55,692 bases of DNA. Origin: a virus. Taxonomy: Duplodnaviria; Heunggongvirae; Uroviricota; Caudoviricetes. The notes beneath the pieces were generated by a model. That model searched no databases. It was not told the origin of the DNA and saw only the letters and a list, made by a program, of their open reading frames with translations. The stretch is from IMG/VR virus record IMGVR_UViG_2693429768_000005. One strand, given 5' to 3'. Positions 4,265-54,535 of this stretch are shown one piece after another. Numbering within the stretch: the stretch's first letter is position 1; the number at the start of each line of letters is the position of its first letter. Both the position numbers and the translations under genes were made by a program.

Positions 4265-4423
4265 CGCAATGACTCCATTATGTTAATTAACGGAATAATT
4301 CTACCATTTTGTGATCTTTGTTGCATTTTCTGCTTACACAAAATGTATTTGTTGATTTATGTCAATGTTGCGTAAATGCGGTTTATGGATACTACAAACA
4401 ACGAAACAACGGAGGGTAAGACA

Positions 4424-4663
4424 ATGAAAGGCTTTAAAAATATAGCTATCGCTGCAATGGTTGCTGGTCTGGTTGGTTGTGCTGATATGCCGAAACGTGA
4501 ATGCACGGCAACTTATCAAACTGGCGGTAATGAGTATGCGGTTGCAGTCTTCGGTGTCGCGGATGTTGGCGGTCATAAAATGGTTAAGGCCGGGTATCCG
4601 TTTAACTTCCAATGGGTAAGCGTTGACAACTTCAATAAAACGGATTGCCCGGAACTAAATTAA
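4424..4663 (+). CDS. small lipoprotein, candidate Cor/Llp-like superinfection-exclusion protein
   Basis: 79 aa from internal ATG after GGAGGG; signal peptide with lipobox LVGC; divergent from adjacent receptor-binding genes. Confidence 0.55.
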   Translation: MKGFKNIAIAAMVAGLVGCADMPKRECTATYQTGGNEYAVAVFGVADVGGHKMVKAGYPFNFQWVSVDNFNKTDCPELN

Positions 4664-11794: not shown

Positions 11795-11892
11795 TTTATC
11801 ACCTTGTCATTTTGTGATCGCCATCACGCTAAATCATGCCAAAACGGTTGATCGCGTTTTTTACAATATGTATATTGTACTCAAAAGGAAGC

Positions 11893-12078
11893 ATGGTTAA
11901 CAAAATGGCGCGGAGGTGTGAAATGGATGATAAGGTGTGGAGGTTGGCGGTGTTCCTTGCGGATGGCAGGAAAATGACTGTGGCCCTGTATAAAGATGAA
12001 GGCGAGGCACTTACCGACGCGCTCTTACTCGCTGAAGACGAACGCGTTTTGGGGTACAGAATCGAACCTGTCAAATGA
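11893..12078 (+). CDS. hypothetical moron protein
   Basis: ORF on opposite strand to tail operon, SD-like AAGGAAG before ATG; part of cassette with own terminator. Confidence 0.35.
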   Translation: MVNKMARRCEMDDKVWRLAVFLADGRKMTVALYKDEGEALTDALLLAEDERVLGYRIEPVK

Positions 12079-13890: not shown

Positions 13891-13917
13891 AACTTCACTC
13901 TCATAAGTTACATATTG

Positions 13918-13955
13918 TATACATCTTTACGCGTTTCTACGCGAAAAATGAGAAA
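13918..13955. repeat. 34-bp conserved element, copy 1 (tandem TACGCG repeats)
   Basis: ATACATCTTTACGCGTTTCTACGCGAAAAATGAGAAA; near-identical copy at 26524-26560. Confidence 0.5.
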
Positions 13956-14061
13956 TTCATCACAAGAATTATAACCAGTTTACAAAATGGCTTCACATAA
14001 GGCGTGACAAGATGTATATAGTAAGCAAGAAGAAAAAGCAGTACCGACAAAGGGGGACAAT

Positions 14062-14598: not shown

Positions 14599-14635
14599 GC
14601 CCCGGCATTGTACCGGGGTTTGGTTTATTTGCGGC
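14599..14635. terminator. bidirectional rho-independent terminator between moron and tape-measure gene
   Basis: CCCCGG-cattgta-CCGGGG hairpin with TTTGGTTTATTT on plus and T-rich tract on minus. Confidence 0.6.
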
Positions 14636-17600
14636 GAGGTTGCAACATTCCTCCCGGTCTGGATGATTCGCGGTGTATCAGGCCCATACAGATCTTTTCC
14701 ATATCCTGCTGTAGTTTTTTGGCGTCCTCATCACTCCATCCATTTTGTGGGTAAACACTAATCGGTGCGTTTATACTAACGTTACCGCCGCCCGCACCAC
14801 CAATGTCGCGATTTGATATTATCCTGCCGTTGTCACCCGGAATCATGTACTGCTCGCCGTTTCGAGATTGGAAGATCTCTGGCTTGCCGTGCTCGCCAAC
14901 CCTATAAAGATTGCCGCCATTAACCGCGCCGCCGTTATAGCGAGCACCCGCCAGGCCAAGCGCTTTTGCCCCAGCTAATCCGGTAGCCATCGCCGCTGAC
15001 CCCGCCGTCGCTGCGCCGCCCATTGTTGCCACGCTTGCCAGGTATGCCGGGGTGGACCATGCAGAACTTAACGCCACCGCCTCGCCCATTGCCTTTGCTG
15101 TTGCGGCGGCACTGGCAGCCTCCCCTATTAATTGCTGCTTGACCCATTCAGCGCCCATCTGAACAAGCGTACCGATCACGGATGACAGAATTGTATTGCC
15201 AATGTTAGCAAGCGCCTGTTGCCAACTCTGAGTGCCGTTAACCAGTCCGACAAGCGCGTTTGTTGCGGAACCACTCATTGCATCAACAGTATCACCTAAC
15301 AATTGGTTGCTCATTGACTGCGCTTTATATCGTTCCCATTCAAGGGAAAGCATTTCCTGTGCGTGCGCTTTTTCTTGCTCCCTCATATATTGCTCGGTAG
15401 CGCCTAAATCGGTAAGCATTTGTTTGCGAACAGCCCATTCGTTTTGCGCCTGCTGGATTGGGTCTACCTGCCCGCGCACTTGTAGCTCTTTGTTTACCAG
15501 ATTATCCCAGCTAGCCTGACGTTTGCGTTGTTCCTCGGTTCCAATTAATTCTTTCCATGCCTTATTGTATTGTTCCGCGCTTATTTTCCCGCTTTTAAGT
15601 GCGGCGTTTAGCGCCTCCTGATCCTCTTTTAATTTCCGTTGTGCTGCAGCTTCTACGTTGTATTTGTCTGCAACATTCTGGCCCCGCTTCTCAAGCTCTT
15701 TGCGCAGGCGTTCAGCCTCTTTTAGACGTTTTTTCTCCTCGCTTTCCCCATGACTGGCCTTTCTTTCAGCTTCGGCGCGTTTCTGCTCGGTGTCGTATGC
15801 TTTGGTCATTGTAGCCATGTATTTTTCATACGCTTCCCCGGTCAGGTTTGCTTTCTCAGCCTCACGCTTAAACCCATCAATCGCCTTTTCCCTGCTGGCT
15901 GTTTTGGAGTCGAGTTTTGCCAGTTCCAGGCGGCGGTTTGCCAGATCCATTAGCTCTTGCTGATCTGCGTTAAGTGCGGCTGAAGCGTGTTGCGTTGCTG
16001 CTGCTGCGCGTTCTGCTTCTGTGGTGATTCTTCCGTATGCGTCTGCCACCAACCCTAATGAAGTGGCAAGGGTCTTCATTAGCGGATCTGTATCCTGCAT
16101 AAGCAAAATATATTTGCGCTGCATTTGATTAAGGCGGTCGAGAATATCCTCACGCTGCGCCTCTTCCCTGGTCAGGCGGGCTGTGATTTCCTGATTAGCT
16201 TTCGATAGGTTGGCGTAAGCGCGTGACCCCTCCTCTGCTTTCTCCAGTGCCTGTTTATTCAGCTCTAGCGCCTGCGTGTCCTGGTCAATCTGTTTGTTGA
16301 GACTGACAACGTCTTCCTCTAACTGACCCATTGATATTTGTAGTTTATCTGCGCCAGCCAGTTTAGCCGCCTTGCTCATTCGCTCCAGTGATTCGGTACT
16401 AACATCCACTGAATCAGCAAGGTTGCGGTTTGCCTCTGCCGTTTGATCTACGTGATCTACATATGCTGTCAACCCGTAAACAGCAAGCATTAACGCGCCA
16501 GGGATACCACCAATCGCGCCCAGAGTAGCGCTAAATGCTGTTTTTAGTAGTCCCGCATTAGTCGCCGCCGCAGTGTGGGCCGCAGCAAGGCGCTGCTCTG
16601 CCGCAGTAAGGGCGTTTGATGCCGCCGTGTTCTGTGCTTTGGCTACAGCCAATTCTTTCAGCGTCTGAACTTCGAATTTTGTTCCGGCGTTTGCCGCAGC
16701 ATAAGCCTGCGCCTCTCTCAGCCTTGCCGCCGCCGCCGCTGCTGATTGCCGTGCTGATACCACCTGAGCGTTAGCTAGCGCCAATTCACTCTGAGCGGCC
16801 TGCCGTGCCGCTGCCGTTTGTGCCCTGGTTGCCTGAGCGTTAGTTAATGCCTCTGCTGTTGCAGCTACGAATTTATTTACCACTCTGCCACCCATCACAG
16901 TGGCAAGGCCAATAAATGCAGTAGCTATTTCGTTAAGGTTTTCTGACAGGGTTACAACTGCCGAATTAAAAGCACCAATCCCGCCCATAATTGACGAATT
17001 GCTGCCGAAAAATTTAGCTGCGTTGTTGCCTGCAACAGTGAAAGCCTCCTGCATAGTTGGGGTGAGTTTAGAAAACTCAGCATCAACCTCCGCTTTCATT
17101 TCCTTAAGGGCTTTAATGATAGCTTCACGGGTGATCTTCCCTTCTGCTGCCATCTTGCGCATTTCTGCCGACGATACGCCCAATGATTTAGCCAAACCCT
17201 CTGACAGCCTGGTAGCGTTTTCTGTAACGGAGTTAAATTCATCGCCATTCAAAACACCTTTGGCGAGGGATTGACCCAACTGACGGATCCCGCCTTCTGC
17301 TTCAGCGGCAGAAGCGCCAGAAATGCGGAATGTTTTGTTAATGGTTTCAACCATATCACCAAGTGCTTGCGTCGATAAACCAGCGTCGCGCGTCGAGCGC
17401 TCTAATTTACCGTAAAGATCTGCCGTAGCATCAAGATCGCTTCGTGAATTTTGCGCGATCTGAAATACACGCTGATTAACGTCTGCCAGTGATTCACCAG
17501 CACGAACGCTATTGATTAGCCTGTTATTCACCTCCTGCCAGGCGTTTGCATACTCAATGATTTTTTTTGCTGCCATTGCAGCACCCAGGGCACTGGCAAT

Positions 17601-17768
17601 CGAGGATAGCTTTGACAGTGACTTACTTGCCTGAGTGGCGGCACTATCCACGCGCTCCAAATCCTTTTCCATTTTGCCAGTTGCGCGATCTACCTCGCGC
17701 TGAACAGTCAGAAGCTGACCCGTTTTTGCATCAACCTCGTAATAAATTGTGCCTAAATTTGTTGACAT
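14625..17768 (-). CDS. H: tail tape measure protein
   Basis: 1047 aa, Ala/Gln-rich coiled-coil-like protein upstream of M-L-K-I-J; typical tape-measure composition. Confidence 0.9.
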   Translation of the reverse strand: MSTNLGTIYYEVDAKTGQLLTVQREVDRATGKMEKDLERVDSAATQASKSLSKLSSIASALGAAMAAKKIIEYANAWQEVNNRLINSVRAGESLADVNQRVFQIAQNSRSDLDATADLYGKLERSTRDAGLSTQALGDMVETINKTFRISGASAAEAEGGIRQLGQSLAKGVLNGDEFNSVTENATRLSEGLAKSLGVSSAEMRKMAAEGKITREAIIKALKEMKAEVDAEFSKLTPTMQEAFTVAGNNAAKFFGSNSSIMGGIGAFNSAVVTLSENLNEIATAFIGLATVMGGRVVNKFVAATAEALTNAQATRAQTAAARQAAQSELALANAQVVSARQSAAAAAARLREAQAYAAANAGTKFEVQTLKELAVAKAQNTAASNALTAAEQRLAAAHTAAATNAGLLKTAFSATLGAIGGIPGALMLAVYGLTAYVDHVDQTAEANRNLADSVDVSTESLERMSKAAKLAGADKLQISMGQLEEDVVSLNKQIDQDTQALELNKQALEKAEEGSRAYANLSKANQEITARLTREEAQREDILDRLNQMQRKYILLMQDTDPLMKTLATSLGLVADAYGRITTEAERAAAATQHASAALNADQQELMDLANRRLELAKLDSKTASREKAIDGFKREAEKANLTGEAYEKYMATMTKAYDTEQKRAEAERKASHGESEEKKRLKEAERLRKELEKRGQNVADKYNVEAAAQRKLKEDQEALNAALKSGKISAEQYNKAWKELIGTEEQRKRQASWDNLVNKELQVRGQVDPIQQAQNEWAVRKQMLTDLGATEQYMREQEKAHAQEMLSLEWERYKAQSMSNQLLGDTVDAMSGSATNALVGLVNGTQSWQQALANIGNTILSSVIGTLVQMGAEWVKQQLIGEAASAAATAKAMGEAVALSSAWSTPAYLASVATMGGAATAGSAAMATGLAGAKALGLAGARYNGGAVNGGNLYRVGEHGKPEIFQSRNGEQYMIPGDNGRIISNRDIGGAGGGNVSINAPISVYPQNGWSDEDAKKLQQDMEKICMGLIHRESSRPGGMLQPRRK

Positions 17769-17925
17769 GATTTAACCTCATACAAAATGTGATCTATGCC
17801 TCTATTTTATACAAAATGGATTTACCTCAGTGAACACATTTTGTATAAAGAAGCCAAAGGAAAGGGATAGAGCGAAGGGACTTAAAAGGCCGGATTGACC
17901 GGAGGAAGCAAAAGAGGATAAGAAA

Positions 17926-18027: not shown

Positions 18028-18387
18028 ATGAAAAGTCTGGCAAAAATCTTAATCGTGGCGGTACTTGCAGGAGTTGCGCTTAATGCTAATGCTGAGCACT
18101 CTCCGTCCGCAAAATACATACTTCGTGAATGTGCGCATAATGCTCAGTTGTACGATATAAAGCATGGTGACGGTAATGGTGATCTGGAAATGCCATTTAA
18201 CGTTGGCTGTATTCATTACGCAATGAAGCCAGTATTAGAAAAAACCGCTGAATGGAAAGATCTTAATAGCAAGTACAATGAATTAAAAGAGGCGGCAAAA
18301 AACAATAAAGCGTCACTAAATGCGTTTAAGGATGGCGAGTCTTATGGTGTAAACGTGGCCCACAGAGTTGATGCGTATTTCAACTAA
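18028..18387 (+). CDS. secreted (signal-peptide) protein of unknown function
   Basis: 119 aa; N-terminal MKSLAKILIVAVLAGVALNANA-EH signal peptide; own terminator downstream. Confidence 0.5.
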   Translation: MKSLAKILIVAVLAGVALNANAEHSPSAKYILRECAHNAQLYDIKHGDGNGDLEMPFNVGCIHYAMKPVLEKTAEWKDLNSKYNELKEAAKNNKASLNAFKDGESYGVNVAHRVDAYFN

Positions 18388-20998: not shown

Positions 20999-21385
20999 TT
21001 ACATCCTCCCGCTTTTACCTATCCAAAGCCCAGCGTGTGCGGTGTTTTCTGGATCTGGTGGAATCAGTTCGGCTGTACAGTGATGTTTATCAAGGGAGTA
21101 AAGCAACGAGCAGGCTGCCTTCCATTTTTTATTAAAATCGACATAGCGGTATGACTGGCCTGCACCGTTCGGACCAGTTTGCGAGGAAACGTACTTGTTA
21201 GCCTGGGTAAGTCCTAACAGGCCAATAAGATAAAGTTGAATCAATGTTGCACTGGAGGCCGGATAGTTGGCATCAAGGCATTCATTAACGCTGTTTGCCT
21301 GCTCCACCAGCAAAGATAAGATAACGTCTGGCAGGTCAATACCCTGGCTTTCAAGATATTCCCGCGCCTGTTCTGTAGTGACCAT
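20999..21385 (-). CDS. putative head-tail connector / packaging accessory protein
   Basis: start set at MVTTEQAREY; synteny downstream of capsid gene. Confidence 0.4.
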   Translation of the reverse strand: MVTTEQAREYLESQGIDLPDVILSLLVEQANSVNECLDANYPASSATLIQLYLIGLLGLTQANKYVSSQTGPNGAGQSYRYVDFNKKWKAACSLLYSLDKHHCTAELIPPDPENTAHAGLWIGKSGRM

Positions 21386-21399
21386 TTTGTTTTCTCCAC

Positions 21400-25148: not shown

Positions 25149-26508
25149 TATCGCGGCTGGAGGTATTCGCCTGATTATCTTCTTCACCCTCATCATCGTC
25201 CTCCTCTTCCGTTTCTACTTCACTGGCTGGGCCATCGTATCCGGCAGCCTCGCGGATCTCGTCACCGCTAAATATTTCTTCACCAGTAGCCAGACAAGCC
25301 TGATTGATTTGTGCCATTTTGTCTGCGGCTTCCAGTAGCTCTGCTTTGGTCATGGCGTTAAGGTCGTCCCATAGCACTGATACATCTACTGGCATACTGA
25401 TAAGGCGTAGATCTGCCATCTTGCGGAACAGATCTTCAATCTCGCCACCGATTTCCTCCCTGCGGGTCATGCAGCGGCTGTTGAAGTAACGCAGGTCTTC
25501 GGTTGATGCACGCTCTCCCTGTTGGTTCCCAACCAGGATGCGGGTTGGAATATCAACACCAGCGGCGGCGGTTTGCAGGTTTACATCATAGGTTGATGAC
25601 GGGTCAGACACGGCAGTAACCAGCGGGCTTACTGTCGCACCCTGTAACGCCATCATTACGTCATTACCCTTATTCATTTCAGCCGTAGCCTCATTGAATC
25701 TTTCGCGTAACTCTGTAACGTCGCAATCGTATGTTGCAGCCAGGGAACGGAAGTCAATCTCTTTATCGAACGAAATAGCAAGCTGACGCGCTGCGTTTTT
25801 CAGGAATGATTCACCACTACCGCCTTCCACTTTTTCCAGTGATACGAATGCGTTGTAGGAAGGTTCAAGGAAAGCGATGACATCATCAGAATAGTCGCCA
25901 AAGATGAATATGCGGTCAGGGTGGATCTTTCTGGCAATGGTCTTACTGTTAATGCGTTCTTTGTATTCCCACCATGTCGGCAGGCCATAATTTTCACTGT
26001 CCGGGTCTTCTTCGAACTCCTTCGGTGTAAGAGCGCCAGCCCACACAGGGGTAAATTTGGCAATACCTACGCCTTTTGTCACTGGCTGATCCCACGGCTG
26101 GTTATCTCTGACATGAATCAACAGACCAGCATAACGACCAATGAGGCGGCGGCGATCACATTCAGCAACAGTGCGCCAAAATCTGTTGTTAAATTTCTTC
26201 TTGATTTCTCTTTCCCACGGTGTTTCCTTTTTCGCTTTCTCGTCTTCAGTTCCCTCAATCATCTTTGGCTTGGTGCGCCAGCAAGTCGTAACAATCTTTT
26301 CTACAGCACCGTGAGCGATGCCGCCGCGTCTGTACAGTTTGTATAGATCGTGGTACGTGATCTCTTCTTTGAATCCGTATTCACTCCACGCAGCATCACG
26401 TTTGGCATCTATCCCCATAGTGAATGGGTTGGCTGCGGCATAGCGGGCGTAGGCCGCCTGGCGTTGTGACAAGGCAGCATTAACCGCCAATTCTAAATTG
26501 GATGGCAT
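25138..26508 (-). CDS. portal protein
   Basis: about 456 aa, acidic C-terminus; follows terL; start set at ATG after AGGAG. Confidence 0.7.
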   Translation of the reverse strand: MPSNLELAVNAALSQRQAAYARYAAANPFTMGIDAKRDAAWSEYGFKEEITYHDLYKLYRRGGIAHGAVEKIVTTCWRTKPKMIEGTEDEKAKKETPWEREIKKKFNNRFWRTVAECDRRRLIGRYAGLLIHVRDNQPWDQPVTKGVGIAKFTPVWAGALTPKEFEEDPDSENYGLPTWWEYKERINSKTIARKIHPDRIFIFGDYSDDVIAFLEPSYNAFVSLEKVEGGSGESFLKNAARQLAISFDKEIDFRSLAATYDCDVTELRERFNEATAEMNKGNDVMMALQGATVSPLVTAVSDPSSTYDVNLQTAAAGVDIPTRILVGNQQGERASTEDLRYFNSRCMTRREEIGGEIEDLFRKMADLRLISMPVDVSVLWDDLNAMTKAELLEAADKMAQINQACLATGEEIFSGDEIREAAGYDGPASEVETEEEDDDEGEEDNQANTSSRDNAI

Positions 26509-36289: not shown

Positions 36290-37011
36290 TATTCACCCCG
36301 TGTCACTCGTTTGATTTCGTTATCAGCCCGCGCCTCTTCTTTGAACAATTCAGCAATGGCGTCTTCATAGAAAGCACGGTATTTCTTCCACCATGTTGAT
36401 CGGCTTACCGGAAAAACAAGCTGATTAACAGCCTGCCGGACAAGATCTACAGGGAAACGCGAGTACCCGCGCCCGCCGCAGTGCTGGCACGTTTTGAACA
36501 CTGGCATTTCCGCCGCTTCACTGGCTGCTTTATCCGGTACTTCGCCACGACCCTTGCATTGTTTACAATGATTGCGAACTGTCCCGTGGCCATTGCATTT
36601 TTTGCAAAGGTGTTTTTCTCCGTAGTCGTCAAACGTAAATTTATATCCGCCGCACTCCATACAGGTTTTTTCCGTCGCGGCGCTTTGGCAATAATCCCGA
36701 AACGCGAAAACGGCAACAAGAATAATAAGATCATTGCGTTTGGCCTCGTCCAGTTCCATAACGTATTCATAATCTTTTGCCATAGCTCTTAAACGCTCTG
36801 TAAGCAAAACTACGGCCTTATGTTTTTCTGCTTGTGATAGTTCCATCTTCCCTAAAAAAGCGCTGTAGCCAAGCTCTACGCGCGATTGCGCCATACCTGC
36901 AGCAGTTAGTGCATCAGTAGTATTAAGCGCATCCGGGGACGTGCCCCGGCTTTCATCCGACAAACGCGGTGACTTTGGGAAGTGGAATTTAAGAATTGAT
37001 TCCAGGTTCAT
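36289..37011 (-). CDS. Q: late-gene antiterminator Q (lambda type, zinc-finger)
   Basis: N-terminus MNLESILKFHFPKSPRLSDESRGT aligns with lambda Q MRLESVAKFHSPKSPMMSDSPRAT (from memory); CxxC clusters. Confidence 0.85.
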   Translation of the reverse strand: MNLESILKFHFPKSPRLSDESRGTSPDALNTTDALTAAGMAQSRVELGYSAFLGKMELSQAEKHKAVVLLTERLRAMAKDYEYVMELDEAKRNDLIILVAVFAFRDYCQSAATEKTCMECGGYKFTFDDYGEKHLCKKCNGHGTVRNHCKQCKGRGEVPDKAASEAAEMPVFKTCQHCGGRGYSRFPVDLVRQAVNQLVFPVSRSTWWKKYRAFYEDAIAELFKEEARADNEIKRVTRGE

Positions 37012-38390: not shown

Positions 38391-38566
38391 AATGCTCTCT
38401 CCTTTTAAGGTGATTTCTACGCATTTCAGCGCTGCCGGATTTTTAAAGAGCATTTTGTTTGCTTGAAGTATACAAAATGGATACGCCATAACAAGGTGAA
38501 AAGCGCCATTATGTGATCTATATCACGTAATGACGCCATTATGTAAACTTCAGTCCGGCAAAACGC

Positions 38567-39100: not shown

Positions 39101-39554
39101 AATTCAAATCAAGCAAATCAGTAGCGCAACGACATTGAGGGTTAATCTCTGAAGGAGATAAGCCATTACAGGATATTATAACTCCATCATTTACCATCCC
39201 ATCATTAATATTGGCGGCAGTGAACTGATTTTTCTTTTGCTCATTCTCCCGATCATTTAATATTTGCTCCGCTTTTAGTGCGCTGTAGCTGATTAAGTCA
39301 ACCAAAGTATCAGTAGGGTCAGAACCATTAGCCAAAATTGCCTCTAAACGCGCCTCCTTAAGACAAATCAACAGATCCCATACATCAAGTGGGGTTAAAT
39401 TTGCGCCCTTCTTAGCGTTGTAAATGGTGGCTATTTTTGGCGCTGATTTTTCTTCTTTTCTGTCGTAGCCGTTTTGTTTACCTCTTTGCTCTATTGTTTC
39501 TGCTGCAAGTCGTAATAAATCTGCTGCACTAGTCATTTTCTGCACCTCTTGCAT
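39075..39554 (-). CDS. hypothetical protein (159 aa) upstream of Dam
   Basis: ORF; no domain recognised. Confidence 0.4.
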   Translation of the reverse strand: MQEVQKMTSAADLLRLAAETIEQRGKQNGYDRKEEKSAPKIATIYNAKKGANLTPLDVWDLLICLKEARLEAILANGSDPTDTLVDLISYSALKAEQILNDRENEQKKNQFTAANINDGMVNDGVIISCNGLSPSEINPQCRCATDLLDLNFGYQSEEG

Positions 39555-40077
39555 ATAGCTCTTTACGTGTTATCTGCGTGAAAATACATTCATGTCTGCA
39601 CCGTGGATGCCAGATCAAAAACAAGCTCCCTTTGTTGTTTCCGCTCACTGGCTTACCAGTCGCAGCATTTATAAAAGCCAGCCGCCCGCGCGTTATTAAT
39701 CTGCATTCGTTTGCCGTCTCAACGCCGTTCATAAACCAGCTAACAGAAATGTCAGCGGGCAATAACATTACGCAACCGATGTGGTTTCGGCTGTGTTCAA
39801 GCGCCGCTTTATCAACGAATGGCCCCGGGTTCGAATATGGTGGATTCATCCAGACATACTCACCAGGCATTGCCACCGCTCCCCACGGATAATGCAGCGT
39901 GTCCATTTCTTCGGTTATATATCGCGGGATTAATGCGTTTGCCTTGTTTGCCGCCACGTCAGCGACAAATTCAAACTCACGATCCATTCCTCTAAAAACT
40001 GGTTTAGGTGTCTGCCACAGGTCTTTAATTTCCTTCGGCGTACTGCTGCCTCCAAAATCATTTTTCATTATGACCAC
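39529..40077 (-). CDS. phage DNA N6-adenine methyltransferase (Dam-like)
   Basis: 182 aa; motif VWMNPPYS (NPPY catalytic motif). Confidence 0.8.
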   Translation of the reverse strand: MVIMKNDFGGSSTPKEIKDLWQTPKPVFRGMDREFEFVADVAANKANALIPRYITEEMDTLHYPWGAVAMPGEYVWMNPPYSNPGPFVDKAALEHSRNHIGCVMLLPADISVSWFMNGVETANECRLITRGRLAFINAATGKPVSGNNKGSLFLIWHPRCRHECIFTQITRKELYARGAEND

Positions 40078-41258: not shown

Positions 41259-41358
41259 CTTGTTTTTCCTCCGCGCCGTAAACCTTTTGATTTCAGTTCA
41301 CAAAACGGATTTACGATCACAACACAAAATGTATTTCTATGTGATCGCCATCACTATG

Positions 41359-44731: not shown

Positions 44732-44761
44732 AATGTAACCTCCGAATGTTTACATTTTGTA

Positions 44762-45052
44762 TTAATGGTAACGGACTTTATCCAGGGGTTTCTCCCCTAA
44801 ATGGCGTGGTTGCGTTGCGTGGTAGTAGCTGCCGCTTTCATTTTCCGTATACCATTTTACTGATCCTTTGCGACGTTCTTTAATGCTATTTGGTTTGCAC
44901 CTTTCCTCGTTTGCAAATCGAATAGCTTTATCCACATTGTCTGTTTTATTAATTGCAGGTGATGATTTTCTTTCGTTTTCTCTTTTTATCCTTCTGCGTT
45001 CCCTGGCGTTCATTTTGCTATCACATTTTCCATACATAATTGTAACGCTCAT
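44762..45052 (-). CDS. N-like transcription antiterminator (Arg-rich motif)
   Basis: MSVTIMYGK...NARERRRIKRENERK resembles P22 gp24 / lambda N Arg-rich motif (from memory); first gene of leftward operon beside cI. Confidence 0.6.
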   Translation of the reverse strand: MSVTIMYGKCDSKMNARERRRIKRENERKSSPAINKTDNVDKAIRFANEERCKPNSIKERRKGSVKWYTENESGSYYHATQPRHLGEKPLDKVRYH

Positions 45053-45394: not shown

Positions 45395-45430
45395 GACTCG
45401 CAATATACGCCCCGTAAAACACCGAGTCAA
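45395..45430 (-). promoter_or_regulatory. candidate pL-like early promoter with flanking inverted repeat
   Basis: minus-strand TTGACT-N17-TATATT; 8-bp inverted repeat TTGACTCG/CGAGTCAA brackets it. Confidence 0.5.
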
Positions 45431-45521
45431 TCCATTTTGTATACTTTTTTAAAACATTTTATATGTTATTGATATTTAAACAATAAATAACGTTTTCTGT
45501 TTACGTTTTGGTGCTTTCATG

Positions 45522-45547
45522 GCAAAGAAAAGCCGCCATCCGGCGGC
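45522..45547 (-). terminator. rho-independent terminator after cI
   Basis: GCCGCC-atcc-GGCGGC hairpin followed by TTTTCTTTG on minus strand. Confidence 0.55.
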
Positions 45548-45553
45548 TAATGT

Positions 45554-46201
45554 TTATGGCAGGTTTACGATCTTCGCATCAACTACCACGCCTATGATTT
45601 TTGATTCTGGATTCATAGGGATTGGCGGATACAGCGGATTGAGCGAACGTAAAAGCCTTTGACCTCCATCAATAATCAACTGTTTAAACGTCGGTATCTG
45701 CCCTTCCTCAAGCTGGGCTATAACCAGTTTGCCGTCAATAGCTGGCGCGTGCGGGTCCACGAGTATCATCGTCCCCGCCGGGATGCTCAACCCCTGCGGC
45801 GCGTTCATTGATTCACCTTTGGCAACCAGCCAGTAACTATCATCTGAACAAATAACGCTAGTCGTAACGTGTGGTAATGCTGATCGCCTTGTGTCATCCA
45901 TATTGTTTACTGTATCCTTCCAGTCAATAACCGGGTAACTACCTAAATCACGCGGCGGTGCGGCCTGAAGTGTATTAGAAACAGAATCATCAATGACCAT
46001 ACCATCATGTGTAACAGTGAACTGCCGACGACCAAGCGCCCGCATAATCCGCGCAATATCTTCAAGATTTGGCTCGCGGCGACCGTTCAGCCAGTGTGAC
46101 AGGCCGCCTTTAGTTATCCCCATGAGATCTGCGAGTGAATCCTGACTCATGCCCTGCGCCCGCATGAGCTGCTTTGCTAAGTCATACCATTTTGTTTTCA
46201 T
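45554..46201 (-). CDS. cI: CI-like repressor (HTH plus S24 LexA-type peptidase domain)
   Basis: 215 aa; N-terminal HTH (SQDSLADLMGITKGGLSHWLNGRREP) and C-terminal autoprotease region with Ser (KGESM) and Lys (TFKQL). Confidence 0.85.
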   Translation of the reverse strand: MKTKWYDLAKQLMRAQGMSQDSLADLMGITKGGLSHWLNGRREPNLEDIARIMRALGRRQFTVTHDGMVIDDSVSNTLQAAPPRDLGSYPVIDWKDTVNNMDDTRRSALPHVTTSVICSDDSYWLVAKGESMNAPQGLSIPAGTMILVDPHAPAIDGKLVIAQLEEGQIPTFKQLIIDGGQRLLRSLNPLYPPIPMNPESKIIGVVVDAKIVNLP

Positions 46202-46506
46202 GTCGCTACCCTATAACCTCAAAAAGTTTGATGCAAGTCACAAAACGTGTATTTTAAGCCTTGATCTTAAAATTCCATTTTGTAAACTTGCAGACAAGGT
46301 AAGGCCATACTTGCAAAGACGCAAGGAAAAAGATAACGGAAGGCACAAAAAGGCACATACCTTAAGCTCTTTAAAAATCCGGTGTCGCTGCGAAGCGAAA
46401 AACAAATATCACGCAACGGCGGGATCTGTTGAGCGGTCAGTCACTGCTATCTAATGCTAATGGGATGCCCGCCCGCGCGTTCATTTTAACCATAGGAGAA
46501 AATACA

Positions 46507-46761
46507 ATGAGCATGAACATGATTAGCGAAGTATGGAAAGTAAAACTTAACAGCCCGATTCAAAAACTGGTCTTAATGGCTCTGGCTGAAAAGGCAGATA
46601 ACCGCCGTCACGTCATGGTATCACGACAAGAAATTGCAAAAATGTGTGAACTTCCTGTTCATACGGTACATGATGCCTTCGCCGCGTTAATGCATAAAGG
46701 GTTTGTTTGTCGTCTTGATGCGTTCAGTGATGTCTATGTAGTGATGTTACCGGAGGAATGA
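46507..46761 (+). CDS. putative HTH DNA-binding regulator (Cro/CII position)
   Basis: first rightward ORF after immunity intergenic region; GGAGAA SD; helix-turn-helix-like segment. Confidence 0.4.
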   Translation: MSMNMISEVWKVKLNSPIQKLVLMALAEKADNRRHVMVSRQEIAKMCELPVHTVHDAFAALMHKGFVCRLDAFSDVYVVMLPEE

Positions 46762-48919: not shown

Positions 48920-48953
48920 GTATACAATTTGTTATTCGTGAGGAAATGACACT

Positions 48954-50084
48954 ATGTCACAAAGAAAAATCAGCGATGAGCAATTGATCGCTGAATATAA
49001 CAACGGTTTAACGTACAAGCAGATCGCTGAAAAATATGGCATGTCAAAACGCAACGTCGAGCGGCTAGGCGCAAAACTGGCGAAACGCGGTTTAATATCC
49101 ACGCGTCGCGCACCGGGTTTTGGCGTCAATGCTGAGTCATTGCTCGTCGATAAGGATGGCAATGTGATCATGCGCTGGATTAAAACAGCCCGTGACCGCG
49201 ACGAAATGGAACAGTTAATGGAAGCGGCCCGCGACGCTTTCACGGATGAAATACCACGCGCGGAGGCTGTGCCAGTGCCTGAAATTGATTTTCAAAAAAG
49301 CCTAGCCCTTTATCCGGTGTTTGATCTGCATATCGGGGCGCTTGCTCATAAAGCTGAATGCGGCGAGAGCTACGACACTGGGATCGCTGAGCGCGTGTTG
49401 AATGACTTCTTTGACTACGCTGTTGGCGCTGCTCCGATGTCTGAAAAAGCCGTACTGCTCCTCGGTGGCGATCTGCTTCATTCTGACGGTATGGTCCCGG
49501 TGACGCCAATAAGTGGGCACATTCTTGATCAAGATAGTCGCTACGCAAAACTTGTTTATGTGGCGATCCGGTCTGTCCGGCGGGCGGTAGGTAAAATGTT
49601 GTTAAATCATAAGGATGTTGAAATCCAGGTGTTATCAGGCAATCACGATCAGTCTGGTATGATTTGGCTACGTGCGGCGCTGGCGGCTTTTTACGAAGAT
49701 GAACCGCGCGTGACGGTTGATGTGTCACCTGCTATCGTCCACCACACGCAGTACGGCAAAACATTCCTTGCTTACCACCACGGGCACACTATCAAAAAGC
49801 CGGAAAATTTATTGTCTGCTTGCGTAGCTGACTGGCGTGAGGATTTCGGCAAGTCGAAATATGTTTACGTCCATGTCGGACATTTGCACCATAAATCAGT
49901 AACAGAATCATCTATAGGCATAGTTGAACACCACGGCACGTTAGCGGGCAAAGACGCTTATTCAACTAATGGAGGATGGAGATCGCAACGTTGCGCTGCG
50001 GTTATCCTTTACAGTCCTGATTATGGCGAAATTGGTCGCTTTGTATATAGGCCTGAAATGGTGGGGTGTCATGATGTGGGATGA
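48954..50084 (+). CDS. HTH-metallophosphoesterase fusion protein
   Basis: N-terminal HTH-like LTYKQIAEKYGMSKRNVER; C-terminal phosphoesterase motifs DLH, GDLLH, GNHD, HHGH, GHLHH. Confidence 0.55.
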   Translation: MSQRKISDEQLIAEYNNGLTYKQIAEKYGMSKRNVERLGAKLAKRGLISTRRAPGFGVNAESLLVDKDGNVIMRWIKTARDRDEMEQLMEAARDAFTDEIPRAEAVPVPEIDFQKSLALYPVFDLHIGALAHKAECGESYDTGIAERVLNDFFDYAVGAAPMSEKAVLLLGGDLLHSDGMVPVTPISGHILDQDSRYAKLVYVAIRSVRRAVGKMLLNHKDVEIQVLSGNHDQSGMIWLRAALAAFYEDEPRVTVDVSPAIVHHTQYGKTFLAYHHGHTIKKPENLLSACVADWREDFGKSKYVYVHVGHLHHKSVTESSIGIVEHHGTLAGKDAYSTNGGWRSQRCAAVILYSPDYGEIGRFVYRPEMVGCHDVG

Positions 50085-50577
50085 TTTATTTACATATAGC
50101 GACGGCGTTCTATATTGGTCTTGTAACCGTGCAAATAACAAAATAAAAGCAGGTAGCGTGGCTGGATGTAAACATTATCGCGGATATTGGACTGTACGCG
50201 TTAATGGTATTTGTTGCACATGGCGTCACCGCATTATCTGGGAAATGTTTAACGGCCCTATTCCTGATGGAATGGAAATAGATCACATAAATCATATACC
50301 TGGTGACGATAGAATCGAAAACTTAAGGATGGTGACAAGGAAGGAGAATAACAGAAACAAAACAATGCCATCAAGTAATACTAGCGGATGCGTTGGCGTT
50401 ACGTGGAACAAGAAAACCAATAAATGGCGTGCGCAAATAGGTATAAGGGGGTCTGATGGGAAAAAGAAAACAATATACGTTTATTACGGTGACTCATTTG
50501 ATGATGCCGTAAAAGCAAGAAAAGAAGCTGAAAGAATGTATAACTTTCATAGCAATCACGGTATTTCTTTACCCTGA
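50071..50577 (+). CDS. HNH homing-type endonuclease with AP2 domain (second copy)
   Basis: HRIIWEMFNGPIPDGMEIDHINH plus AP2-like GVTWNKKTNKWRAQI; start overlaps upstream stop. Confidence 0.8.
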   Translation: MMWDDLFTYSDGVLYWSCNRANNKIKAGSVAGCKHYRGYWTVRVNGICCTWRHRIIWEMFNGPIPDGMEIDHINHIPGDDRIENLRMVTRKENNRNKTMPSSNTSGCVGVTWNKKTNKWRAQIGIRGSDGKKKTIYVYYGDSFDDAVKARKEAERMYNFHSNHGISLP

Positions 50578-50611
50578 ATATTCCATTTTGTAAACCGGAG
50601 GCAATAACATA

Positions 50612-54317: not shown

Positions 54318-54535
54318 TGGATAAGATCGGGACAATACTTATTAACCGTGAGCAAGTGCAAAAAATGTTAGGCGGGCTTAGCAAGTCCGCCTTTTTTAAG
54401 CTCGTTAAAAAATGGAAAGAAGCGGGAACTCCTTTCCCTGAACCTGTAAAGGGGATGCCAGCATTAAAGCGCGGGGGATCTCTTTACCGTTATCAGGACG
54501 TTATTTCATTTTGTAAATCGATGGGCTTCATGTAG
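54317..54535 (+). CDS. excisionase/AlpA-like HTH protein
   Basis: 72 aa; adjacent to integrase; HTH-like INREQVQKMLGGLSKSAFFKLVKK. Confidence 0.45.
   Translation: MDKIGTILINREQVQKMLGGLSKSAFFKLVKKWKEAGTPFPEPVKGMPALKRGGSLYRYQDVISFCKSMGFM

Follow-up and report, generated by a model that had tools for sequence, protein, structure and literature searches.

The 55,692-nucleotide window analysed here (IMG/VR record IMGVR_UViG_2693429768_000005, Caudoviricetes) holds a prophage of the mEpimmI group in which the octamer ACAAAATG recurs many times. We find that this word is the centre of a 17-bp pseudo-palindrome, GTWTACA-AAA-TGKAWWC (half-site GTWTACA, with an A-tract at the centre), and that the sites built on it are probably the operators of Rep, the lambda-CI-like repressor of the prophage, possibly also bound by the protein with the Cro function. 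The relatives mEp021, mEp515 and mEp010 share 80–97% DNA identity with the window, which is reversed in orientation with respect to their records. The mEpimmI phages are Nus-dependent, non-lambdoid coliphages; their 2025 description defined three nut sites and reported that Rep021 confers immunity (PMC11893012).

The recurrence of the word is real and strongly non-random. An exhaustive search finds 23 copies of ACAAAATG on the two strands of the window, against 4.15 ± 2.09 (maximum 10) in 100 dinucleotide shuffles and 3.2 expected under an order-2 Markov model (z = 11), which makes it the most over-represented 8-mer in the window; maximal-order Markov k-mer statistics are uninformative for the motif, its sub-words being themselves enriched. 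The original prediction had listed 17 positions by eye and spoken of at least 17 copies. Each of these positions carries the word or its complement, six more are added (11900 on the plus strand; 14741, 21383, 25315, 32680 and 46188 on the minus strand), and the chance expectation, given there as about two, is corrected to about three to four. The core is strict, in that single-mismatch variants of TACAAAATGG are hardly enriched at the core positions. The enrichment is common to mEp515 (18 copies per 50 kb), mEp021 (15) and mEp010 (15), and 43 IMG/VR relatives hold 398 copies against 49 expected.

Since a naive greedy map of open reading frames (ORFs) over-calls wrong-strand ORFs in intergenic regions, we placed the copies by the PGAP and mEp021 annotations of relatives instead. 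Seventeen copies are intergenic (11900 and 16 of those first listed), one (21383) provides the start codon of a gene, and five lie in coding sequence (14741, 25315, 32680, 46188 and 54507), roughly the chance level; the statement that all the listed copies are intergenic fails only for 54507, in the 3' end of the integrase gene. On a deliberately over-called ORF map, 9 of the 23 copies fall within the ORF-free 6.8% of the sequence. The original prediction had named a similar density in coding or host DNA as the finding that would speak against a regulatory motif; the coding copies are near chance, and the window has 0.41 copies/kb compared with 0.11/kb in 100 kb of Escherichia coli K-12 and 0.06/kb in lambda. 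Thirteen of the 17 intergenic cores are sense to local transcription, a borderline bias, with orientation ambiguous in divergent regions.

For the anatomy of the site we centred sequences on core base 5; the window together with 47 related loci gave 37 independent site families. In these, the column preferences of the left half match those of the right half once it is reverse-complemented, as expected of a 17-bp dyad operator: T at k5 (21 versus 20 families), A/T at k6 and G or A at k8, the half-site across families being G-T/A-W-T-A/C-C-A. The flanks extend the word to G-W-W-T-ACAAAATG-G-M-W-T, and near-perfect palindromes such as GTATACAAAATGGATAC and ATATACAAAATGTATAC occur among the sites. 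An extended motif had been proposed before and the flanks indeed extend, but the sites are 17-bp pseudo-palindromes and not asymmetric 10-mers; they had looked asymmetric because the AAA centre is oriented and the right half-site is the weaker. A palindromic half-site matrix, applied symmetrically with the central triplet free, finds seven sites of at least 14 bits against 0.3 simulated, and it adds intergenic sites with A/T-rich centres at 11867 (ATA), 13914 (TAT), 44639 (CTA) and 48928 (ATT).

Rep combines the domains of a CI-type repressor, Pfam HTH_3 (E = 5e-13) and Peptidase_S24 (E = 4e-19), and matches lambda CI over its full length (3bdn, E = 1e-19). Given this homology, it would be expected to bind dyad operators of about 17 bp as a dimer, cooperatively via its C-terminal domain. 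No other early protein is as well conserved (91–100% identity for Rep across 46 loci), and the protein in the Cro position (46495–46761) varies between 33 and 72% identity in the group. Three syntenic phages (L051–L053) provide a swap test: their Rep is 55% identical overall, with the N-terminal arm MKTKW and the recognition helix ITKGGLSHWLNGRREP identical, and their Cro-position gene encodes an unrelated HTH_3 protein instead of a winged helix, but they keep 10–12 copies of ACAAAATG per 20.6 kb versus 1.4 expected, at equivalent positions including the promoter PR.

Operators of the same kind accompany Rep-family repressors elsewhere. Unrelated lambdoid prophages (Enterobacter, Citrobacter, Serratia and a metagenome) encode repressors 40–51% identical to Rep, with the recognition helices ITKGAVSHW or ITQGGLGHW, and carry GTATACA-NNN-TGTATWC 17-mers in the canonical layout of the operator regions OR and OL: three sites, 33 and 26 bp apart, stand between cro and the repressor gene, and a further cluster with spacings of 34 and 25 bp follows downstream. 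A matrix trained only on the half-sites of these prophages (the foreign matrix) ranks the motif sites of the window at the top: 11 sites reach 12 bits, where simulations give 1.8 (4 at most), and five reach 14 bits, where they give 0.17. It recovers the predicted PR-core operator, as well as the OL cluster of a prophage absent from its training (L058), and at 12 bits or more lambda has one site and 100 kb of K-12 none. In the foreign prophages no site of at least 11 bits lies outside OR and OL; in mEp021 and mEp010 such sites spread over 3–44 kb. Taken together, the swap test, the foreign operators and the cross-validation tie the motif to Rep. Distant Rep relatives (L048–L050, 38% identity) were uninformative, with Chi alone enriched; a tblastn search of phage records with a Rep-family member returned no experimentally characterised phage with this N-terminal domain, and a full-text literature search with the motif sequence matched only primers.

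The same comparisons make it unlikely that another phage protein, either the Cro-position protein or a 376-residue protein (48954–50084), is the binder in place of Rep. Both are weak matches to helix-turn-helix domains, and the second is present in 43 of 46 loci at 88–91% identity, but the variable Cro-position protein is replaced in L051–L053 while the motif persists, and the same operator family stands at OR and OL of prophages whose one feature in common with this phage is the Rep-family repressor. Cro and CI use the same operators in lambda-type switches, so that co-binding by a Cro analogue is expected and is compatible with Rep as the principal binder.

The earlier suggestion of one regulator, encoded by phage or host, is thereby narrowed towards the phage. 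Recognition by a host protein such as DnaA, CRP or the integration host factor (IHF) could be imagined: the DnaA box is TTATNCACA, the motif contains the box-like TTATACAAA with one mismatch, and separate CRP-like sites adjoin some copies. We consider it extremely improbable, as the invariant ATG lies outside the DnaA box, G is preferred at the first flank position, the K-12 sample is neither enriched in the word nor contains matrix sites of at least 12 bits, and the motif goes with the Rep-type N-terminal domain in unrelated prophages of different genera. A DnaA box was rejected for the first two of these reasons, and the consensus sequences of IHF, Fis and other host proteins, compared by hand, did not fit.

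The arrangement of the sites also resembles that of operators. They stand singly or in lambda-like tandem clusters whose neighbours are 22–35 bp apart, with centres at 4279/4308/4342 (spacings 29 and 34 bp), 11811/11867/11904, 13914/13986/14011, 17786/17815/17840 (29 and 25 bp; the interval from which the motif was first described), 33749/33774 (25 bp), 38454/38476/38510/38540, 45411/45436 (25 bp) and 46244/46279 (35 bp). A recurrent module consists of a -35 hexamer flanked by two operators at 25 bp, the second of which covers the -10. At PR the order is GTATACA-AAA-TGGATTG, TTGACT, then TTTTACG-GGG-CGTATAT overlapping TATATT; the corresponding predicted promoters are TTCACA-17-TATATA at 13.9 kb and TTGTTT-17-TATATA at 33.7 kb. 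The symmetry of the 17.8-kb cluster yields two back-to-back predicted promoters, and in the rep/PL region a 27-nt inverted repeat (46232–46292) carries the operators centred at 46279 and 46244. Beside rep, tandem operators lie over the predicted divergent early and maintenance promoters.

Each of the three published nut sites has a motif-bearing predicted promoter upstream, that of nutR2 being TTGTTA-16-TATACT (38494–38467, minus strand), immediately before it. The structural genes lie on the minus strand, and four small plus-strand gene clusters ('morons') are inserted among the tail genes; at all four moron junctions operators sit on divergent predicted promoter regions, that at 11859–11875 covering overlapping promoters at 11848–11876 (plus) and 11903–11874 (minus). 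Other sites (41328, 44756, 48928, 50587, 11811 and 11904) are single, within operons and away from good promoter matches. These placements bear out much of the original prediction: a copy does precede each plus-strand moron cluster, the inverted pairs are present in the sequence, and the idea of one regulator's sites at promoters gains support, since the sites match the operator family of Rep-type CI repressors and overlap predicted core promoters. A copy does abut the -35 (TTGACT) of the promoter that had been called pL-like, which is PR in mEp021 nomenclature because it drives the gene of the N-like protein gp17.

Proximity to promoters raised the alternative that the word is itself a promoter element for host RNA polymerase, either a -10 and spacer in reverse (CATTTTG-TAWACT) or a forward UP-like element at -46 to -38. 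The reverse flank gives TATACT, TAAACT or TATAAA at the -10 in nine site families, and a -35-like hexamer stands at +10 in five families in the forward sense. The proximal UP subsite has the consensus AAAAAARNR, which ACAAAATGG matches at 7 of 9 positions. A -35 at the required spacing is only mildly enriched (23% versus a background of 12.6% in reverse, 11.6% versus 4.2% forward), no promoter fits the many copies that lie 13–30 nt from start codons or past predicted starts, the invariant bases fall in a spacer that sigma-70 does not read, and the dyad symmetry and the occurrence at foreign OR and OL indicate a repressor operator that overlaps promoters; a promoter element is therefore improbable. 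The weak enrichment at fixed offsets suggests instead an operator overlapping promoters at varying positions. Three related readings were tried and rejected: a forward -10 (CAAAAT) has no consistent -35 17 bp upstream, a -35 within the motif (TTTACA or TATACA) has inconsistent -10 matches at 16–18 bp, and an extended -10 has its TG one position out of register, except at 4305.

An RNA element, whether a motif of 5' untranslated regions (ACAAAAUGG) or hairpins of inverted pairs acting in translation, processing or termination, would accommodate the sense orientation of 13 of the 17 intergenic copies, the position of several of them 13–30 nt upstream of starts, and the stable folds at 33.7 kb (-24.1 kcal/mol, z = -6.6) and 17.8 kb (-17.9 kcal/mol, z = -5.7). 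It is hardly credible in view of the rest: Rfam gave no match, two of the four pairs fold no better than shuffles, relatives conserve the operator arms at 17.8 kb but not the inner stem, and the hairpins are without U-tracts. Copies occur in both orientations, also upstream of promoters and thus untranscribed from the adjacent promoter, and dyad DNA sites at foreign OR and OL account for the same sequences.

Several copies lie exactly at breaks of similarity between relatives (50584 versus mEp010, for example), and the cassette AT-ACAAAATG-TAAAC-GGAGG(-ATG) is found behind at least three upstream contexts in relatives, as if the sites were recombination linkers at module boundaries for the exchange of mosaic cassettes. 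Such a function would not account for sites that are dyad-symmetric, are spaced as in OR and overlap -35 and -10 elements, nor for their association with the Rep family outside mosaic contexts; regulatory sites that head modules are expected at boundaries anyway, and exchange could be a by-product. We regard linkers as a very improbable explanation.

Several points weigh against the assignment to Rep. The case for it is wholly comparative and in silico, and the mEpimmI description gives neither operators nor a repeated motif with which to compare the sites (PMC11893012). Promoter assignments are mostly consensus matches, promoter scans overall gave no enrichment over shuffles, and -35 hexamers at fixed distances from the motif were only mildly enriched. 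Several exact-core copies (4308, 11811, 11904, 33749 and 38454) have poor outer half-sites and low foreign-matrix scores, a site with dyad symmetry gives no reason for the weak sense-strand bias (13 of 17), and control by Rep of promoters that face tail genes is odd. Finally, the inner 8-mer with its oriented AAA is far stricter than the inner bases of the foreign operators. Recognition of the Rep type would not by itself account for so strict a core, and the MKTKW arm or DNA shape may contribute. The arm of lambda CI reads the operator centre, and by analogy that of Rep may do the same; the mEp-type arm is MKTKW, versus MNMKW and MKQRW in the foreign repressors.

If Rep is indeed the binder, its dimers would occupy the operators in the lysogen, adjacent dimers perhaps binding cooperatively through the CI-like C-terminal domain, and at paired operators they would occlude the -35 and -10 elements of PR, PL and the promoters upstream of nutR2, at 33.7 kb and at the junctions of morons and tail genes; the rep/PL pair would also autoregulate Prep. 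Single operators within operons might act as roadblocks, as auxiliary looping sites or loop anchors, or as operators of weak internal promoters. One repressor would in this way silence a promoter set spread over the genome, and induction would release all of it together. What the analysis demonstrates is the anatomy of the sequence, its statistics, the homology and the comparative association; binding, repression, cooperativity and the roadblock or looping roles we infer.

More tentatively, and as something possible rather than probable, we propose that the CI-type regulon of this common group of gut coliphages is genome-wide, with the morons and adjacent tail promoters under Rep control, the intra-operon sites serving as roadblocks or anchors, and immunity modules that cannot be swapped because about 25 scattered operators must match one repressor. 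If true, this would explain why all known mEpimmI phages form a single immunity group versus the many among the lambdoids of the same collection. On the main reading already, the plus-strand morons are probably repressor-controlled genes and not constitutive genes of lysogenic conversion, and the prophage would offer a dispersed operator network for a repressor of the CI/LexA type, an architecture documented earlier in P1 and in cluster A mycobacteriophages, whose repressors are unrelated. For Rep021 the analysis supplies a concrete, testable operator, GTWTACA-AAA-TGKAWWC, with a site map; PR, PL/Prep and an additional promoter before nutR2 are among its predictions.

Table 1. Candidate sites, predicted promoters and genes of the window. 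'Operator' denotes a candidate site defined by sequence; bit scores refer to the palindromic matrix of this group or to the foreign matrix.
Feature	Position	Strand	Remarks
Variant operator ATTAACA-taa-TGGAGTC	4271-4287	-	overlaps tail-fibre start codon; exact ACAAAATG in relative L002
Operator GATCACA-aaa-TGGTAGA, core 4305	4300-4316	-	TG with following TAGAAT resembles an extended -10
Operator TTACACA-aaa-TGTATTT, core 4338	4334-4350	+	30 nt upstream of moron 4376-4663; foreign 14.3 bits
Moron at 4.3 kb	4376-4663	+
Operator, core 11808	11803-11819	-	13 nt upstream of tail gene L start; downstream of predicted minus-strand promoter
Palindromic operator TTTTACA-ata-TGTATAT	11859-11875	.	palindromic 15.4 bits, foreign 13.6
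Operator, core 11900	11896-11912	+	15 nt upstream of first small plus-strand moron gene
Operator AGTTACA-tat-TGTATAC	13906-13922	.	tail gene M/moron junction; palindromic 14.8 bits, foreign 13.9
Operator GTTTACA-aaa-TGGCTTC, core 13982	13978-13994	+	abuts -35 TTCACA of predicted promoter
Predicted promoter TTCACA-17-TATATA	13992-14020
Weaker operator CGTGACA-aga-TGTATAT	14003-14019	.	25 bp downstream of 13986 centre; covers -10 of 13992-14020 promoter
Tape-measure gene	14625-17768	-
Coding copy, poor flanks	14736-14752	-	tape-measure 3' end; probably chance
Operator TCATACA-aaa-TGTGATC, core 17782	17778-17794	+	first of three; 14 nt from tape-measure start codon
Mirror-image predicted promoter TTCACT-17-TATAAA	17806-17834	-	towards tape-measure gene; consensus match only
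Operator TTATACA-aaa-TGGATTT, core 17811	17807-17823	+	29 bp from previous centre; foreign 13.7 bits
Predicted sigma-70 promoter TTTACC-17-TATAAA	17821-17849	+	into moron 18028-18387; between operators 17815 and 17840; consensus match only
Operator TTATACA-aaa-TGTGTTC, core 17837	17832-17848	-	25 bp from previous centre; covers -10; foreign 15.3 bits
Moron downstream of 17.8-kb sites	18028-18387	+
Start-codon copy GGAGAAAACAAAATGG	21378-21394	-	ATG is a gene start; probably translation-start context
Coding copy	25310-25326	-	portal-region gene; probably chance
Coding copy	32675-32691	-	probably chance
Operator, core 33745	33741-33757	+	inverted-pair member; covers -10 TATATA of predicted minus-strand promoter
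Operator GTATACA-aaa-TGGCATT, core 33771	33766-33782	-	25 bp from partner; overlaps -35 TTGTTT (33766-33761)
Q	36289-37011	-
Core copy 38451	38446-38462	-	overlaps nutR2 boxA; GCAAAATG in several relatives
Operator GTATACA-aaa-TGGATAC	38468-38484	+	best in window; 6/8 symmetric pairs; 15.8 bits; on -10 of TTGTTA-16-TATACT
Variant operator GATCACA-taa-TGGCGCT	38502-38518	-
Variant operator GTTTACA-taa-TGGCGTC	38532-38548	-	exact ACAAAATG in 43 relatives
Single intergenic operator CAACACA-aaa-TGTATTT	41320-41336	+	inside early right operon; foreign 13.8 bits
Candidate operator GTTAACA-cta-TGTATAA	44631-44647	.	just upstream of erf; palindromic 14.3 bits, foreign 10.5
Operator TAATACA-aaa-TGTAAAC	44748-44764	-	between N-like gp17 gene and next gene; foreign 14.7 bits
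N-like gp17 gene	44762-45052	-
PR-like promoter TTGACT-17-TATATT	45402-45430	-	upstream of nutR1 and gp17 gene
PR-proximal operator TTTTACG-ggg-CGTATAT	45403-45419	.	covers PR spacer and -10; foreign 12.1 bits; also in mEp010
PR-distal operator GTATACA-aaa-TGGATTG	45428-45444	-	overlaps first bases of -35 TTGACT; foreign 14.3 bits
rep, lambda-CI-like repressor (HTH_3 and Peptidase_S24)	45554-46201	-	proposed binder
Copy in rep codons 3-5 (MKTKW)	46183-46199	-	coding; 53 bp from operator 46244
Variant operator AGTCACA-aaa-CGTGTAT	46236-46252	+	just past predicted Prep -10 TAAAAT (46256-46251); exact ACAAAATG in 13 relatives
Predicted PL promoter TTGATC-16-TAAACT	46261-46288	+	upstream of nutL and first PL-operon gene; consensus match and position relative to nutL
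Operator GTTTACA-aaa-TGGAATT	46271-46287	-	covers PL -10 and Prep -35 region; right arm of 27-nt inverted repeat
First PL-operon gene, Cro position	about 46495-46761		weak winged-helix match
Candidate intergenic operator GTATACA-att-TGTTATT	48920-48936	.	left (replication) operon; palindromic 14.1 bits, foreign 10.5
376-residue protein with N-terminal winged helix	48954-50084
Intergenic operator GTTTACA-aaa-TGGAATA	50579-50595	-	just upstream of helicase Shine-Dalgarno; mosaic junction
Integrase gene int	54493-55692	-
Copy in int 3' end	54502-54518	-	overlaps xis-like gene

The sites differ in conservation. Among the three at 17.8 kb, the first (17778–17794) is not conserved in mEp021 or mEp010, the second keeps its core in four relatives while its flanks diverge, and the third is kept in relatives; the PR-distal operator is present in 46 of 46 relatives, and the operator at 44748–44764, with two good half-sites, in 44 loci. 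The copy in the first codons of rep may serve both as coding sequence and as operator.

The prophage occupies the abgT attachment site of an E. coli host, bases 1–1446 of the window being the 3' part of abgT, and a hairpin resembling a terminator lies at 1542–1565. In the mEpimmI description the abgT site is 'motif II' and the ydaM site is more common; that paper puts mEpimmI phages at about half of the temperate coliphages from human faeces in its collection (PMC11893012). The morons include a KilAC antirepressor-like gene and, by the PGAP annotation of a relative, a gene for a ParE-like toxin.

In and around rep, the mEp021 record (MH706966.1, 11173–11218) places the start of gp15 (Rep021) 45 nt further downstream than the ATG adopted here (window 46156–46201). 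The longer form (MKTKWYDLAKQLMRAQG...) restores helix 1 of HTH_3 and the conserved N-terminal arm and is kept in all homologues, from which we conclude that the deposited start is probably too short. In P0008-type phages the Cro-position gene is replaced (window 46495–46761 versus L051 9649–9876) with the Rep N-terminal domain and the operators unchanged, an uncommon situation for CI and Cro. On the plus strand, the sequence of the PR-distal operator gives a good -10, TATACT, with a poor -35, AAAACA (45441–45560); this -10 reads towards a bidirectional terminator at the rep end (45531–45548) and could yield a transcript of about 100 nt antisense to the 3' end of rep. A second repeat, ACGTTTT/AAAACGT, occurs three times around rep (45490, 45503 and 46240), the last copy coinciding with the variant operator and the first two lying, unexplained, between the rep terminator and PR.

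The predicted promoter before nutR2 (about 38410–38445) parallels PL before nutL and PR before nutR1, and suggests that nutR2 serves a separate promoter beyond reinforcing PR transcripts. The core copy at 38451 overlaps boxA (ACAAAA-TGCTCTTTAAAAA) and may be fortuitous.

At 33.7 kb the two operators lie within a near-perfect palindrome of about 46 bp (33735–33790), and a perfect CRP core consensus, TGTGA-CTCGTA-TCACA, occupies 33785–33800 on the minus strand, centred about 60–61 bp upstream of the start predicted for TTGTTT-17-TATATA, the position of a class I activator. The promoter precedes a 46-codon ORF starting near 33703 and, to judge from this layout, may be activated by CRP and repressed by Rep. 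The segment is absent from mEp021 and mEp515; the exact-core family of the copy at 33771 is found in one relative only, and the copy at 33745 occurs in the window alone. Another CRP-like sequence, TGTGATCGCCATCACT, is present at about 41340–41358.

Dam sites (GATC) directly abut several operators (GATCACAAAATG, GATCACATAATGG and ACAAAATGTGATC; regions 4300–4316, 11803–11819, 38502–38518, 17790–17796 and 41312–41350). The phage has a Dam methyltransferase gene of its own (39529–40077; Pfam Dam, E = 6e-51), and methylation might modulate operator occupancy. The window and mEp010 (L004 about 5325) cease to be similar exactly at the operator 50579–50595, which adjoins the gene of a homing (HNH) endonuclease (49969–50577) present in only 9 of 46 relatives; together with the recurrent cassette, this suggests exchange at or beside operators.

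Two known systems share the dispersal of sites. Phage P1, a plasmid prophage with tripartite immunity, has as its C1 repressor an unrelated monomeric protein. As in P1, where one immunity repressor controls separate operons through many operators across the genome, the sites described here are dispersed; unlike those of P1 they are pseudo-palindromic and belong to a repressor of CI/LexA likeness, whereas P1 has 22 dispersed 17-bp C1 operators of asymmetric sequence ATTGCTCTAATAAATTT (PMC8546580). In cluster A mycobacteriophages the repressor (gp71 of L5) has more than 20 sites at promoters and in short intergenic spaces, oriented with transcription, and these stoperators are asymmetric 13-bp sequences bound by a monomer (PMC9283540). 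The gp71 monomer has two DNA-binding domains and blocks elongation in an orientation-dependent manner. The single sites in short intra-operon gaps recall stoperators, and the sense orientation of 13 of 17 cores, a borderline bias, may do so too. Except for the AAA centre, however, the sites here have dyad symmetry, their proposed repressor is homologous to CI (HTH_3 and S24), and a roadblock is conjectural. As repressor type and site symmetry differ, the system is a member neither of the P1 C1 family nor of the stoperator family.

The foreign Rep-family prophages of Enterobacter, Citrobacter and Serratia (L054 and L057–L059) share with it the half-site (G/A)(T/A)ATAC(A/G), the 3-bp centre, the spacings of 25–26 and 33–34 bp and homologous N-terminal domains; they have only two clusters, flanking the repressor gene, and variable centres, whereas the mEpimmI sites are dispersed and their inner 8-mer is nearly invariant. 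With lambda (and with 434 and P22 c2) it shares a homologous repressor with a helix-turn-helix and an S24 autocleavage-type C-terminal domain, 17-bp pseudo-palindromes with one good and one poorer half-site, tandem operators, spaced by two to three helical turns, over the divergent promoters on either side of the repressor gene, and N-like and Q-like antitermination. Unlike lambda, it has three-operator clusters inside the tail-gene region, a rep gene transcribed in the same direction as the PR operon and a strictly conserved, oriented AAA centre. The six operators of lambda all lie in the immunity region, while here some 25–30 candidates at about ten loci span 4–50 kb, with sites at 4.3, 11.8, 13.9, 17.8, 33.7, 38.5, 41.3, 44.7, 48.9 and 50.6 kb. 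By the family of its protein and the design of its putative operators, the system is a lambda-type CI switch that departs from the type only in that its sites are not confined to the immunity region.

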